64,000 nucleotides of DNA, taken from an uncultured delta proteobacterium (GTDB lineage Bacteria > Desulfobacterota > Binatia > Binatales > Binataceae). This document shows, piece after piece, positions 6,698 to 44,724 of this stretch (the first letter of the stretch is position 1; every line of letters starts with the position of its first letter). Where the stretch lies: NCBI GenBank assembly GCA_963815835.1, contig CAWFIF010000001.1, forward strand, positions 772,807-836,806. The letters are read 5' to 3'. Under the pieces are notes generated by a model that had not been told where the DNA came from, searched no databases, and saw only the letters and a program-made list of their open reading frames with translations. The position numbers and the translations under genes were made by a program.

Positions 6698-7701
6698 ATG
6701 GCGCTGCGACCAAGCATCGTGACCTCGAATGTCGACGCCGAGCACGCGCTGGCGCTATTGCGGGAGATGGTCCGTATCCGCCGCTTCGAAGAAAAATGCG
6801 CTGAGTTGTACAGTGCCACGAAGATTCGCGGATTCCTTCATCTATATATCGGTGAGGAGGCCGTCGCCGTCGGCGCGATGCGCGCGCTCACGCCGGAAGA
6901 CTCCGTCGTCGCGACCTACCGCGAGCACGGTCACGCGCTGTTGCGCGGGATTCCGGCCGGCGCGATCATGGCCGAGATGTTCGGCAAGCAGGAAGGATGC
7001 AGCCGGGGCCGCGGCGGCTCGATGCATCTGTTCGACGTGAAGCATCGATTTTTCGGCGACAATGCGATCGTGGGAGGCGGGCTGCCACTCGCGGTTGGCG
7101 TCGCGCTGGCCGACAAGCTGCAACATCGATCGAGAATCACCGCTTGCTTCTTCGGCGACGGCGCCGTGGCCGAGGGTGAGTTCCACGAATGCATGAACCT
7201 CGCGGCGTTGTGGAAGCTTCCGGTCCTGATGTGCTGCGAGAACAACCTCTATGCGATGGGCACGGCGCTGAAGCGAGCGCAATCGCAGACCGATCTGAGC
7301 CTCAAGGCGGCGGCATACGAAATGCCCTCGTGGCCGGTCGATGGGATGGACGTCGTAGCATGCGAGGAAGCCGCACATCGAGCCGCGCTCGCAGTGCGCT
7401 CCGGGGAGGGTCCCTGCTTTCTCGAATTCCGCACTTATCGCTTCCGCGCGCGCACTCGATGTACGATCCGCAGCTCTATCGCGACAAGCGCGAAGTCGAG
7501 GAATGGAAGAAACGCGATCCCGTCACAACCTTTCAGAATCGCCTGACGGCCGAGGACATTTTGGACGACGCAAACATGAAGCGCATCGAAGATGAGGTCG
7601 CGGCAGAAATCGAAAAAGCGATCGCATTCGCCGAAGCCGGCACCTGGGAACCGGTCGAAGAACTGACGCGTTTCGCATACTCGGAAAAAAAGCCGACATG
7701 A
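6698..7701 (+). CDS. TPP-dependent 2-oxoacid (acetoin/pyruvate) dehydrogenase E1 alpha subunit; single-nucleotide frameshift near 7447-7452
   Basis: N-terminal ORF 6698-7546 carries the TPP-binding [12 protein letters not shown] motif and ends ...LEFRTYRFR. The C-terminus continues in the +2 frame ([16 protein letters not shown] 7189-7701). The frames join inside a gcgcgcgc run. Confidence 0.75.
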
Positions 7702-8696
7702 GCTCGGACACGAACAAAATCAAGATCACGTATCGCGAGGCGATGCGTCAGGCGATTCGAGCGATGAATCGCGACGCGCGCGTCTTCCTGATGGGCGAAG
7801 ATGTCGGCGCGTACGGCGGATGCTACGCGGTGAGCAAGGGACTGCTGGAGGAATTCGGTCCCGATCGCATCCGCGACACGCCCCTCTCTGAATCGGCCTT
7901 CGTCGGTGCGGGAATCGGCGCAGCGATGAACGGCATGCGGCCGATTGTGGAAATCATGACGGTCAACTTCAGCCTGCTGGCGCTCGATCAAATCATCAAC
8001 AACGCGGCGACTATCCTTCACATGTCGGGCGGCCAGTTCAATATTCCGCTCGTGATCAGGATGACGACCGGCGCTGGCCGTCAACTCGCGGCGCAACATT
8101 CGCATAGCCTCGAAGGATGGTAAGCGCACATTCCGGGCATCAAGGTGCTTGCGCCGGCAACGTTGGAGGACGCGCGCGGGATGTTATGGACTGCGCTCGA
8201 GGATCCCGACCCGGTGCTCATCTTCGAGCATGGCACGCTCTATAACTTTGAAGGTGAGATGTCCGCCGATGCGGGCGCGGTCGAGATTTCGAAGGCCGCG
8301 GTGCGGCGCGCGGGCACGGATGTGAGCCTGATCACTTATGGTGGCACGCTCGGCAAGACGATACAGGCGGGGGAGCAGCTTGCCACGTCGGGCATCGATG
8401 CTGAGGTGATTGACCTTCGCACGCTGCGGCCGCTCGATACCGAGACGATTCTCGATTCGGTGACGCGCACGCATCGCGCGGTCATCATCGATGAAGGATG
8501 GCGTAGCGGCAGCATCTCGGCGGAGATCAGCGCGCGCGTCATGGAGGGCGGATTCTACGAACTGGACCTGCCGGTAGAACGCATCTGCAGCGCCGAAGTT
8601 CCCATACCTTATGCCAAACATCTTGAGGACGCCGCACTGCCGCAAGCTTCAACGATCGTCGAAACCGTGACGCGCATGGTGGGCGCTCATGGCTGA
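7698..8696 (+). CDS. 2-oxoacid dehydrogenase E1 beta subunit; in-frame TAA at 8121-8123
   Basis: ORFs 7698-8123 and 8145-8696 are in the same frame, separated by one TAA (..[19 protein letters not shown]..). Family consensus has Tyr/Phe (W-F/Y-AHIPG) at that codon. Transketolase-like pyrimidine and C-terminal domains are present. Confidence 0.75.
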
Positions 8697-20582: not shown

Positions 20583-20704
20583 CAAAGCATTCGCGAGTGG
20601 GGGGTAATGCGCGCGGCGCAACACGCATTGCGCGTGGTGCAATGCGAAAGTTGACCTCCTCGCGGCGCTCCTACATAGATACATATGGGACCGGAACGGA
20701 CCTC

Positions 20705-21166
20705 ATGAAGATTACCGACTTCCTGACACCCGAGATGATCGAGCCGTCGCTCAAGGGGCAGAGCAAAGCTGAAGTTCTTGAAGAACTTGCAGGATGCCTC
20801 ACCAGGCAGCATCCGGAGATTCCATCGAATGAGATGCGCGCGGTGTTGGCCGAACGCGAGCGGCTGGGCTCGACGGCAATCGGCGACGGCATCGCGATCC
20901 CGCACGGCAAACTGCCCAAAGTCACGAAGATTCTCGGAACCTTCGGCCGTCACGTTCAGGGAGTCGATTTCGAATCGCTCGACGGCAACCCGACGCATCT
21001 GTTTTTCATGCTGGTCGCGCCGGAGGATTCCACCAGCCTCCATCTTAAGGCGCTCGCGCGCGTCTCGCGTTTGCTGCGCGACGGAAACTTCAGGGAGAAG
21101 CTTCTGAACGCGCCCGACGCGAACGAGCTCTTCCGGCTGATTCGCGAAGAGGACAGCAAGTTCTAG
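20705..21166 (+). CDS. ptsN: PTS IIA-like nitrogen regulatory protein (EIIA-Ntr)
   Basis: 153 aa with the EIIA-Ntr His region (GDGIAIPHGK) and conserved position after hpf. Confidence 0.8.
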   Translation: MKITDFLTPEMIEPSLKGQSKAEVLEELAGCLTRQHPEIPSNEMRAVLAERERLGSTAIGDGIAIPHGKLPKVTKILGTFGRHVQGVDFESLDGNPTHLFFMLVAPEDSTSLHLKALARVSRLLRDGNFREKLLNAPDANELFRLIREEDSKF

Positions 21167-42688: not shown

Positions 42689-43297
42689 TCAGCGCGATCG
42701 TTCGGATGCGGCCCGCTCCTTGAGTGCTTCGCCCTCGGGCGCCGCATGCGCCATGTGTCTGGTGAAAGCGTCGAGCTCGACCCCGAACGCATCGGCAATT
42801 CGATCGATAAAGTTGAACAGGCTGGCGATCAGCACGATGTCGTAACACTGCTCTTCGGAAGAGTGACGCCGCAGTCCGTCGAGGTCGGCCTTGGTCATCT
42901 GCGAGGGATTCACGGTGAGCTTCTCGGCATACGCGAGCATCGCGAGATCGGCCTCGGAGAGCGGCGCGCCGCGCCAGTCGCGCTTGAGCGTCGCGACCAG
43001 TTCGTTGGCGCCGTTGCTCTGAACGCGGAGGAACTCCGCGTGGGAATTAGTTCAGTAGTGACACTGATTGAGCGACGACACGACCGTCGCAATCATTTCC
43101 TCCCGCACGCGGCTTAGGTTCGATGCGCCGAAGGTCCCCGTCGTGAAGACTCGCGCGACCGCTCCGAGCACCTCGGGCTTGAGACTGAACGACTGCATGA
43201 TGTGCGGCACCATGGGGAATTTTTGAAGGAGGGCAGCGTAGACTTCCTTCAGCCTGCCGGTAGCGTCCTGCTCGGAAGTGGTCCTGATCCACGCCAT
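42689..43297 (-). CDS. AhpD-like (carboxymuconolactone decarboxylase family) putative selenoprotein; in-frame UGA at 43052-43054
   Basis: ORFs 43052-43297 and 42689-42940 are in the same frame. The product reads ..SSLNQCHY-[UGA]-TNSHAEFLRV.., placing UGA at the second Cys of the AhpD CxxCxxxH motif. The C-terminal part carries the family signature (LAYAEKLTVNP..DIVLIASLFNFIDRIADAFGV). Confidence 0.7.
43023..43041 (-). promoter_or_regulatory. candidate bacterial SECIS hairpin
   Basis: mRNA UGA-ACUAAUUCCC-ACGCGGAG-UUC-CUCCGCGU: a perfect 8-bp stem starting 10 nt after the UGA. Confidence 0.55.
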
Positions 43298-43447
43298 GTC
43301 TCGTCTCCTCGTGGCTTCGATCGTCTCTCTCGTCTAGCCGCGCGCCCCAACGAATCAATCCGGCGAATCTCGTATGCCAAAACGAAAGCGCGCCGCAGCC
43401 ATCGCCGCGACGCGCTCCTCTCGCAAGAAACCTGATGACTGGATTTG

Positions 43448-43780
43448 CTACTTGCCGGCACCCGCGGCAAGGGCCTGCTTCACCATCGGCGCCAGCTCGC
43501 CGCTTTCATAAAGCTCGCGCACGATGTCGCATCCGCCGACGAATTTCCCGTTGATATAAACCTGGGGAATGGTGGGCCAGTTGCTGAAGCGCTTGATGCC
43601 CTCGCGAATTTCCATGTCTTGCAGCACGTCAACCGTTTCGAATGGCGCGCCCAACTGCTCGAAGATTTCGACCGTCGCGGCCGAAAACCCGCATTGCGGG
43701 AAACTGCGATTGCCTTTCATGAACAGCACGATCTTGTTGTTGTTGATCGTGGACTGGATCTTCTCAGCTACATCAGCCAT
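43448..43780 (-). CDS. Grx4-family monothiol glutaredoxin
   Basis: CGFS active site (FPQCGFSAA) and conserved WPTIPQVYI motif. Confidence 0.85.
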   Translation of the reverse strand: MADVAEKIQSTINNNKIVLFMKGNRSFPQCGFSAATVEIFEQLGAPFETVDVLQDMEIREGIKRFSNWPTIPQVYINGKFVGGCDIVRELYESGELAPMVKQALAAGAGK

Positions 43781-43785
43781 TTGGG

Positions 43786-44034
43786 TTACCTCCGATTCGC
43801 GTGCTGTGCCGGTGTCAACGTTTTGAGCGTCAGCGCATGCACGCGCGCGCGCATCGCATCGCCGAGCGCATTGTAGACCGCCTGATGACGTTCGACGAGA
43901 GTCTTGCCCTCGAAGCTTTCGCTCACCACGAGCGCCTCGAAATGGTCGCCGCCGCCGGTGTAGTCGCGCACTTCCACGCGCGCACCGGGAATGCCGTTGG
44001 CGATCATATGCTCGATTTCACTCGCGTCCATCAA
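43786..44034 (-). CDS. BolA family protein
   Basis: 82 aa, BolA fold motif (GGGDHFEALVVSESFEGKTLVERHQAVYNAL). Classic partner of Grx4. Confidence 0.75.
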   Translation of the reverse strand: MMDASEIEHMIANGIPGARVEVRDYTGGGDHFEALVVSESFEGKTLVERHQAVYNALGDAMRARVHALTLKTLTPAQHANRR

Positions 44035-44103: not shown

Positions 44104-44724
44104 TCACTGAATGTATTCGATGTCGTAGCGATTCTCTTTCTTTTCTTGCTCGGGCGTCATCTTCTTCGCGGGCTTCGGTTTACCGGATGGATTTGCGAGC
44201 AACGCGTTCACGCTCTCGGTGAGTTCGCCGGTAGCTCCCGCACCCATTATGCGGCCCACCATGGCGCCGTCGGAGCCTAGAAAAACCGTGGTCGGAATTG
44301 CCTCGACGCCAAAGTCGTCCAGCACCGCTGTTTCGGCGAGCAAGATCGGATAACTGATCTCGAATTGGCGCACGAATGGCCGCACTGATTCGACGCCTTC
44401 ACCCTGCACGGTATCGCACGCGACGCCGAGGACCACTAGTCCGCGCGATTTATGATACTTCGTGTAAAGTTTTTTCAGCTCGGGTATCTGATGGCGGCAG
44501 GGCGCGCACCAGGTCGCCCAGAAATCGATTACCACCGGATGCCCGCGGTACTGGCTGAGCTTGGTGACGTGGCCGTCGAGGTCCCGCAGCGAAAAGTCGT
44601 AAATGTTGCTCGAAGTAGGAACGACCTGGGCGTTGCCGCGCGATTCGAGCCGCGCCGGCATCGGTCCGAGTAAAAGAACGACGGCTACCAGAGCCATCGC
44701 GATGAATTTGCATTGGTGAGTCAT
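44104..44724 (-). CDS. TlpA-family thiol:disulfide oxidoreductase (thioredoxin-like)
   Basis: Signal/TM anchor and WCAPC active site (DFWATWCAPCRHQIPEL). Confidence 0.8.
   Translation of the reverse strand: MTHQCKFIAMALVAVVLLLGPMPARLESRGNAQVVPTSSNIYDFSLRDLDGHVTKLSQYRGHPVVIDFWATWCAPCRHQIPELKKLYTKYHKSRGLVVLGVACDTVQGEGVESVRPFVRQFEISYPILLAETAVLDDFGVEAIPTTVFLGSDGAMVGRIMGAGATGELTESVNALLANPSGKPKPAKKMTPEQEKKENRYDIEYIQ

Follow-up and report, generated by a model that had tools for sequence, protein, structure and literature searches.

The locus described here raises the question of how two adjacent open reading frames (ORFs) that together resemble an AhpD-like redox protein, and that are interrupted by a single UGA codon, should be read. 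They could be the remains of a damaged gene, the two halves of a split gene, or one gene in which UGA is decoded as selenocysteine (Sec). The ORFs reside on the minus strand of a 64,000-nucleotide stretch of DNA (the window) from an uncultured delta proteobacterium of the family Binataceae. Our comparative analysis very strongly favors the last of these readings, wherein positions 42689-43297 form a genuine selenoprotein gene whose predicted product is a single 202-residue AhpD-like oxidoreductase (COG2128/TIGR01926) with Sec at UGA codon 82. An earlier assessment made from the letters alone (the sequence-only reading) had called the gene a probable selenoprotein, and codon conservation, selection on both sides of the UGA, the hairpin that follows it, and the use of TGA as a standard stop all agree with that call.

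The reading frame and its conserved UGA

As the sequence-only reading had proposed, ORFs 43052-43297 and 42689-42940 share one frame in the window sequence, and their sole interruption is the TGA at 43052-43054. The translation around this codon is REEMIATVVSSLNQCHY-TGA-TNSHAEFLRVQS, where the upstream part ends SSLNQCHY. The features of the gene are as follows:

42689-43297, minus strand: AhpD-like (TIGR01926-type) predicted selenoprotein gene, complete, with 202 codons plus a terminal TGA stop (42689-42691)
43304-43310, minus strand: Shine-Dalgarno-like sequence GAGGAGA, read directly, 6 nt before the ATG
43295-43297, minus strand: ATG start codon
43040-43099, minus strand: active-site segment with E67 (43097-43099), C79 (43061-43063), Y81 (43055-43057), U82 (43052-43054), and H86 (43040-43042)
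43052-43054, minus strand: in-frame TGA, predicted Sec codon 82 (U82), at the second Cys of C-x-x-C

The active-site motif read in the sequence is E-x11-C-x-Y-U-x3-H, with C79-x-x-U82-x-x-x-H86 at its core, and E67, C79, Y81, U82 (or Cys), and H86 are kept in all homologues. The claim that the UGA occupies the second Cys of the CxxC motif stands, as a Cys stands opposite the TGA in the solved proteins 6k40 and 3c1l, in the related genomic locus L013, and in the protein homologue P0001. The nearby histidine is indeed conserved, but it was misplaced by one position in the sequence-only reading, which put it three residues later; it is the fourth residue after the TGA, with three residues between. 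Upstream of the gene, AGGAGA is invariant across five aligned regions, although the remaining spacer is deleted in two of them. A systematic scan of the window for other TGA-joined ORF pairs returned the AhpD-like gene as the only credible case.

Assignment of the protein to the AhpD/CMD family, also proposed from the letters alone, was confirmed by profile searches in which U was treated as C. Pfam CMD (PF02627) is matched at 1e-7, and the score with NCBIfam TIGR01926 (peroxid_rel; cutoff 81.8) is 107.3 bits, where residues 2-173 align to positions 1-173 of the 178 in the profile. The generic ahpD_dom domain model (TIGR00778) also matches, and no equivalog-level AhpD model is present among the NCBIfam matches. 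Another profile, NF041238 (AhpD_rel_CFYUT), gives 88.6 bits versus a cutoff of 175 and is covered only at positions 151-343 of 357. By this profile comparison, the window protein is not a member of NF041238, as it scores below the cutoff and is without the ~150-residue N-terminal part of that family.

By sequence, the nearest proteins of known structure are 6k40, 3c1l, 2pfx, and 2oyo (E values of 1e-23 to 1e-19), whose second Cys lies opposite the TGA. With 2PRR included, these matches span E values of 4.5e-23 to 1.9e-11 at ~30-37% identity, the strongest (4.5e-23) being to DR1765 of Deinococcus radiodurans (6K40). For fold assignment only, we used a predicted structure of the Cys homologue P0001, which has a mean pLDDT (predicted model confidence) of 60 (75-90 in the core); the value is low because the N-terminal half had three aligned rows. 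Foldseek searches with this model recovered the same peroxidase-related PDB entries at template-modeling (TM) scores of 0.66-0.75.

Homologues were collected by scanning one genome per species, which yielded 14 loci, all from Binataceae or "uncultured delta proteobacterium" metagenome-assembled genomes, with 58-92% protein identity. A scan of soil and peat metagenomes added 53 loci, and 60 sequences cover the TGA site. The homologues in the 14 genomes and on the 53 metagenome contigs are full-length and collinear. TGA is present at the identical codon in 13 of the 14 genome loci, and the remaining locus (L013) carries TGC (Cys). Across all loci that cover the site, the codon is TGA in 58 of 60, TGC once (L013), and TAA once, in a decayed copy (L058). 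The distinct intact Sec-form coding sequences (CDSs) number 44, and their pairwise amino-acid identity extends down to 40%. TGA likewise occupies this codon in a more distant homologue with 38% identity (L063:1501-2052, Ga0075434_100093010; motif NDCDY-U-IVAH). The exact 83-aa product of the C-terminal ORF is also found on a public contig of 3,418,075 bp, so that this organism probably has a near-complete genome on record, and GCA_052916045.1 and GCA_052915765.1 hold near-identical or identical copies. The sequence-only reading had held that a selenoprotein would be called into question if the homologues of close relatives ended at this codon. The comparison shows that they do not.

These data bear directly on the possibility that the window holds an ordinary Cys-type AhpD-like gene cut short after 81 residues by a nonsense mutation or an error in base calling. 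In-frame stops do arise in this window, as in an E1-beta-like gene (7596-8693) that contains a TAA at 8121-8123, and decayed AhpD-like copies do exist. One of these (L058, Ga0073928_10007678) has TAA at the Sec codon along with further N-terminal stops while its hairpin is still present, and two others (L065, Ga0187846_10052846, and P0007) are frameshifted just past the first Cys. Such copies carry several lesions or frameshifts, and thus the real pseudogenes of this gene look quite different from the window gene, which has a single interruption. Moreover, the same TGA recurs in the 44 distinct intact sequences from independent assemblies with up to 60% protein divergence, a CDS identical to the window gene occurs in a separate assembly (L069), and purifying selection is as evident in the downstream half of the gene as in the upstream half. 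A pseudogene or sequencing error is effectively refuted by this evidence, and we give it almost no weight.

The measures of selection are as follows. The NG86 ratio of nonsynonymous to synonymous substitution rates (dN/dS) is ~0.21 upstream and ~0.18 downstream of the TGA, where dS exceeds 1 versus most relatives. No ATG, GTG, or TTG is found in the 37 codons that follow the TGA in the window, and uncorrected ratios of nonsynonymous to synonymous differences (pN/pS) are 0.39 for the upstream part, 0.42 for these 37 start-free codons, and 0.34 for the remainder. Among homologues, the first possible restart codon falls at 11 different positions, from 7 to 38 codons past the TGA. Downstream purifying selection, the absence of start codons, and the variable restart positions together exclude a truncated product as well as a gene in two pieces whose restart is conserved.

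A split gene, in which an 81-residue N-terminal piece and a re-initiated C-terminal piece would assemble the AhpD fold with no recoding, is how public gene callers represent the locus. In all public records covered, the gene is called as two fragments (81 aa plus 83 aa in L068), or only its C-terminal 83-115 residues are annotated and labelled "hypothetical protein," with fragments of 111-115 aa elsewhere. Among 5.8 billion proteins searched, we found 16 matches, of which 12 are fragments of 111-122 residues that begin just past the position of the window TGA. Such a pattern would arise where gene-calling programs end an ORF at a conserved TGA. Only two matches are full-length, namely P0001 (CHYC) and P0002 (CHYW). 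The latter also reads through its normal stop as W at the C terminus (..RCRR-W-VEP..), and to judge from the protein, its W at the Sec position probably reflects a gene called with a code in which TGA is Trp. Set against a split gene is the fact that the 37 start-free codons are conserved at the protein level and include the catalytic His86, and that the nearest possible restart lies at so many different distances. A split would also remove the second redox residue of the CxxC center, which the Cys orthologue keeps. We therefore regard a split gene as extremely improbable.

The code itself is unaltered. The AhpD-like gene ends in TGA in 38 of 46 homologues, and TGA is the commonest stop (35 of 62) of the long ORFs in the window with high GC content at third codon positions. 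TGA is thus still an ordinary stop in this lineage, which indicates that the code has not been reassigned.

The hairpin downstream of the UGA

If the UGA is decoded as Sec, a bacterial Sec insertion sequence (SECIS) would be expected in the mRNA just past this codon, and the sequence-only reading had pointed to an 8-bp hairpin 10 nt downstream. Its parts are located as follows:

43023-43041, minus strand: SECIS-like hairpin
43034-43041, minus strand: 5' arm, ACGCGGAG
43031-43033, minus strand: loop, UUC
43023-43030, minus strand: 3' arm, CUCCGCGU

The hairpin consists of a perfect 8-bp stem and a 3-nt loop, begins 10 nt (ACUAAUUCCC) past the UGA, and spans codons H86-A-E-F-L-R-V92. It forms the core of the minimum-free-energy (MFE) fold of the window mRNA. 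In a 71-nt context, the fold has a z score of -2.2, and 7 of 200 shuffled sequences are equally stable, which makes it only moderately unusual on its own. The significance of the hairpin therefore comes from its conservation and not from the stability of its fold. An extended lower stem that pairs the UGA itself (CUGA/UCAG in the window) was considered and dropped, as its register is not kept in other sequences.

Indeed, the same helix is the RNAalifold consensus, and the hairpin is kept in all Sec forms. In an alignment of 35 distinct sequences, 97.5% of cells pair, compared with 30-62% in controls where the pairing partner was slid along the sequence. Six core pairs are invariant in this alignment, and one other pair changes from G-C to G-U. 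The pair between alignment positions 15 and 31 is C-G in 22 sequences, U-A in six, and unpaired in seven.

A signal of constraint beyond that on the protein is provided by codon usage. Arm codons +5 GCG, +6 GAG, +8 CTC, and +9 CGC (43/45) are essentially invariant among homologues, whereas the same codons account for 53% (Ala), 61% (Glu), 36% (Leu), and 48% (Arg) of uses elsewhere in the gene. The 5-codon segment that begins at +5 has the lowest synonymous difference of 160 such segments (0.06 versus 0.42 gene-wide). There are 79 alignment columns with conserved residues encoded by degenerate codons, and of the four that are codon-invariant, three fall in the hairpin arms. The loop codon (+7) varies freely, as does the amino acid that it encodes (F, V, or G).

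The Cys form offers a natural comparison. Locus L013 encodes A-E-L-L-R in this region with GCC and CGT codons, and the hairpin does not form. Thus, the UGA and the hairpin occur together and are both lost in the Cys form, as predicted for a SECIS. Fold, conservation, synonymous freezing, and this loss all agree with the proposal that the hairpin is a SECIS.

The apex of the hairpin differs among homologues. The loop begins with G in 31 of the 44 Sec forms, and the apex of most homologues reads G-GUC-C; the window type reads UUC with a G-C closing pair. GGUC is also the sequence of the E. coli fdhF loop, a resemblance that serves as a lead and not as a test. In the distant homologue L063, a different hairpin (GACCUC-CGGGCC-GAGGUC) lies ~20 nt past the TGA, which suggests from sequence that SECIS elements differ between subclades of the AhpD-like family.

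Selenocysteine machinery and neighboring genes

Several observations weigh against decoding of the UGA as Sec. A tblastn search for SelA, SelB, and SelD with E. coli queries, which serves only as a lead, gave no match in the window plus 69 loci, and none of selA, selB, selC, and selD was recovered from the window or from the ~0.5 Mb that the related loci cover. By Rfam, the 64-kb window has no tRNA-Sec, nor does it hold a true tRNA gene or any Rfam family at the gathering threshold, and an ARAGORN search for tRNAs in the 14 genome loci returned nothing. The only tRNA-SeC call in the window (20720-20811) has no Rfam support. With respect to the hairpin, covariation is real but thin, with no variation at six of the eight pairs, and because the arms code for conserved residues, their conservation is partly at the protein level. 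No Rfam SECIS model matches 42900-43150 even at E <= 10, where the coverage of bacterial SECIS elements by Rfam is itself uncertain. Bacterial SECIS loops have been described as containing guanosine (PMC1088965), and the UUC loop of the window hairpin has none; a G enters only if the closing G-C pair opens. Finally, there is no experimental record of selenium incorporation in this clade. Literature searches that paired Binatota or Binatia with selenoprotein or selenocysteine gave no relevant results.

The tRNA-SeC call made by ARAGORN (20720-20811, minus strand) was rejected as a false positive. It lies antisense within ptsN, gives nothing in Rfam at E <= 1, and has a fold z score of -1.05. 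A call of this kind could mislead checks for Sec machinery. The host gene is:

20597-21166: ptsN (PTS_EIIA_2), in an rpoN-hpf-ptsN-rapZ operon

One indirect line of support for Sec use in this lineage comes from a second selenoprotein candidate, a ResA-like gene on a related Binataceae contig (CAWHNS010000006.1):

L004:140-1249, plus strand: ResA-like selenoprotein candidate, with TGA at 566-568 in WASW-U-GC

With U read as C, its protein scores 361.6 bits with NCBIfam NF041054 ("WAxxUGC_long"; cutoff 300). The gene is located 9.5 kb from the AhpD-like gene of the same locus and is unrelated to the AhpD-like family. A possible 7-bp hairpin (CCUGCCA-GUC-UGGCAGG) can be discerned by eye 16 nt past its UGA, and the MFE structure from RNAfold differs. 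The only relative of this protein in the window is a distant TlpA-like gene of the Cys type (32% identity).

The missing sel genes and tRNA-Sec in the window and related loci, along with the lack of a match between the hairpin and any curated SECIS model, leave room for selenium-independent read-through, in which a near-cognate tRNA (Trp, Cys, or Gly) would suppress the UGA and the hairpin would merely stimulate this event, as happens in organisms where the Sec trait is lacking or has been lost. Yet the UGA replaces a catalytic Cys whose codon is TGC in the orthologue, which is the defining signature of selenoproteins, and the family is known for Sec at this position (PMC1088965, PMC13188914). 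A second recognized selenoprotein family has a TGA at its U position in a Binataceae genome. Trp or Gly at this position would abolish the redox center, yet the clade keeps TGA almost exclusively (44:1), and insertion of Cys by a near-cognate tRNA is inefficient and fails to explain selection against the simple change from TGA to TGC. Read-through of this kind is therefore very unlikely, and Sec remains the far better supported identity of residue 82.

The sequence-only reading also noted that the gene sits in a thiol-redox cluster. Redox genes are indeed encoded upstream on the same strand, with a terminator-like element between them and the AhpD-like gene:

43377-43417 (stem 43386-43417), minus strand: terminator-like 14-bp GC-rich hairpin, GAGCGCGUCGCGGC-GAUG-GCUGCGGCGCGCU, followed by the U-tract UUUCGUUUU
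43448-43780, minus strand: CGFS monothiol glutaredoxin (Grx), from Pfam
43786-44034, minus strand: BolA, from Pfam
44104-44724, minus strand: TlpA/ResA-like redoxin with WCAPC motif, from a Pfam AhpC/TSA-family match

A thiolase gene is also present upstream on the same strand. Downstream are cell-wall genes for a DUF882/M15 peptidase and a YkuD transpeptidase, which are on the opposite strand and convergent. No peroxiredoxin-type ahpC is found beside the AhpD-like gene, and the nearby AhpC/TSA match has the WCAPC motif of thioredoxins. The cluster does not hold as a general arrangement, however, as the redox neighbors adjoin the AhpD-like gene in only four of the 14 genomes (L001, L002, L007, and L011). 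Grx-BolA pairs are usually tied to Fe-S clusters and iron handling rather than to peroxide defense. Given this association, the limited adjacency, and the intervening terminator-like hairpin, we place little weight on the cluster argument, and the case for a functional link to the neighboring redox genes is weak.

The terminator-like hairpin, which a simple terminator scan missed, sits between the stop codon of the glutaredoxin gene and the start of the AhpD-like gene. Its stem is invariant in L001, L002, L015, and L068 while the flanking sequences diverge. The hairpin and the ribosome-binding site of the AhpD-like gene are just ~25 nt apart in L001 and L002. This gap leaves no room for a promoter, which suggests that the hairpin may be an attenuator or processing site and not a simple terminator.

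Elsewhere in the window, the E1-beta-like 2-oxoacid dehydrogenase gene mentioned above (plus strand) is a single frame with one TAA. This codon is not at a Cys site and is one substitution away from a Tyr codon, and from the sequence a nonsense mutation or assembly error seems likelier than recoding.

Proposed function and comparison with known systems

A mechanism for the AhpD-like gene can be outlined on the model of known selenoproteins, wherein we infer Sec insertion, SelB binding, the substrate, and the reductant. The hairpin 10 nt past the UGA would act as a bacterial SECIS that binds SelB·GTP·Sec-tRNA(Sec). With the UGA in the A site, the SelB complex would deliver Sec-tRNA(Sec) in competition with release factor 2. 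The resulting protein would hold a C79-x-x-U82 selenenylsulfide center on the AhpD helix, with E67, Y81, and H86 as its relay. Sec82, which corresponds to the attacking second cysteine of AhpD, would attack an oxidized substrate such as a peroxide, or a sulfenate or disulfide on a partner peroxiredoxin or another protein. In the Mycobacterium tuberculosis enzyme, the attacking second cysteine is Cys133, as Koshkin et al. (2003) are said to have reported. Cys79 would then resolve the adduct to an Se-S bond, which a cellular thiol system would reduce again, such that the enzyme cycles between selenolate/thiol and Se-S states.

A bolder version of this proposal, which we consider doubtful, holds that the Binataceae enzyme is almost obligately dependent on selenium (44 Sec:1 Cys). 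It would use an unusually compact, sequence-frozen SECIS placed within catalytic-helix codons (H-A-E-x-L-R), where RNA element and active site constrain each other, and the UUC loop would serve as a SelB-binding apex that is devoid of the canonical loop guanosine. If this is true, and if Binatia have not been recorded previously as users of Sec, the gene would give an aerobic soil clade a constitutive selenoprotein, which could be linked to the module of monothiol glutaredoxin, BolA, and TlpA.

The gene presents a textbook selenoprotein signature in an established family and with an established mechanism. It opens no new scientific question, and its value lies in annotation. With corrected public records, Binataceae proteomes would regain a redox enzyme complete with its active site, and the lineage would be flagged as selenium-using, which bears on the trace-element ecology of soils. 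In addition, the set of 44 sequences provides an example of a compact SECIS whose arms are recognizable by the freezing of synonymous sites, and this set could help to train models of bacterial SECIS elements.

Among known recoding elements, the SECIS of E. coli fdhF is similar to the window hairpin in that it lies within the CDS, starts ~10-11 nt past the UGA, and has a small apical loop. The window hairpin differs in that it is without the bulged U, has a perfect 8-bp stem and a nominal 3-nt UUC loop, and carries G only as a closing base. Among known proteins, members of NF041238 ("hypothetical protein 1" of the Sargasso Sea) are also CxxU selenoproteins, with C-F-Y-U-T where the window protein has C-H-Y-U-T.

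M. tuberculosis AhpD (1KNC, 1GU9), a lipoamide-fed adaptor that reduces AhpC, shares with the window protein the E-x11-C-x-[H/Y]-C-x3-H spacing and the helical AhpD/CMD fold class. A proton relay has been described for this enzyme (E118, C130, H132, C133, H137) and for PA0269 of Pseudomonas aeruginosa (E36, C48, Y50, C51, H55) (PMC3141380). The similarity is only remote, however. There is no sequence match to 1KNC, 1GU9, or 1LW1 at E <= 0.01, and Foldseek compares M. tuberculosis AhpD with the P0001 model at E ~1 and TM scores of 0.42-0.53 (about 0.45). The window gene also is without an adjacent ahpC. The window protein may work like M. tuberculosis AhpD, but it is not its orthologue.

The debrominase Bmp8 (6OHI/6OHJ) is matched by sequence (E of 2e-7, ~22% identity) and by structure. 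It has an AhpD/CMD-superfamily fold and is a thiol-dependent reductive enzyme; no bmp-type genes are near the window gene. As this match shows, the chemistry of the scaffold extends beyond peroxides, and we propose no function from the match.

DR1765, like 3C1L, 2PFX, 2OYO, and 2PRR, has the same length as the window protein and the same LN-x-C-x-Y-C-x-x-SH active-site helix. These are all Cys proteins, whereas the window protein is predicted to have Sec at the second position. A DR1765 mutant of D. radiodurans is sensitive to H2O2, and rescue depends on the cysteines of the CxxC motif (PMC8945050). By analogy with DR1765, the likeliest role of the window protein would be the reduction of peroxide or oxidized thiols.

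Lastly, an "AhpD-like protein" (or "AhpD-like 1") with a CxxU motif was described as a new selenoprotein family in the Sargasso Sea survey, with 27 sequences assigned to COG2128 (PMC1088965). In the Global Ocean Sampling (GOS) data, AhpD-like proteins are the fourth most abundant selenoprotein family, with 299 Sec versus 902 Cys forms (PMC2398784). A 2026 review lists the family under TIGR01926 with CxxU (PMC13188914), and BSepDB includes it among its browsable families (PMC13326102). Compared by family model and published description, the window gene is like the marine members in its TIGR01926 score above cutoff, its CxxU motif, its Cys homologues, and the stem-loop past its UGA. It has every sequence-level trait of the AhpD-like CxxU family, and therefore it is a further member of a family catalogued since 2005 rather than a new one. 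The window gene is unlike the marine members in that it comes from soil and peat Binataceae and not from marine plankton, and the ratio of Sec to Cys forms is 44:1 in the Binataceae clade versus 299:902 in GOS. What is specific here is the Binataceae host, the near-exclusive use of Sec in the clade, the compact and frozen hairpin, and the consistent misannotation of the gene in public records.

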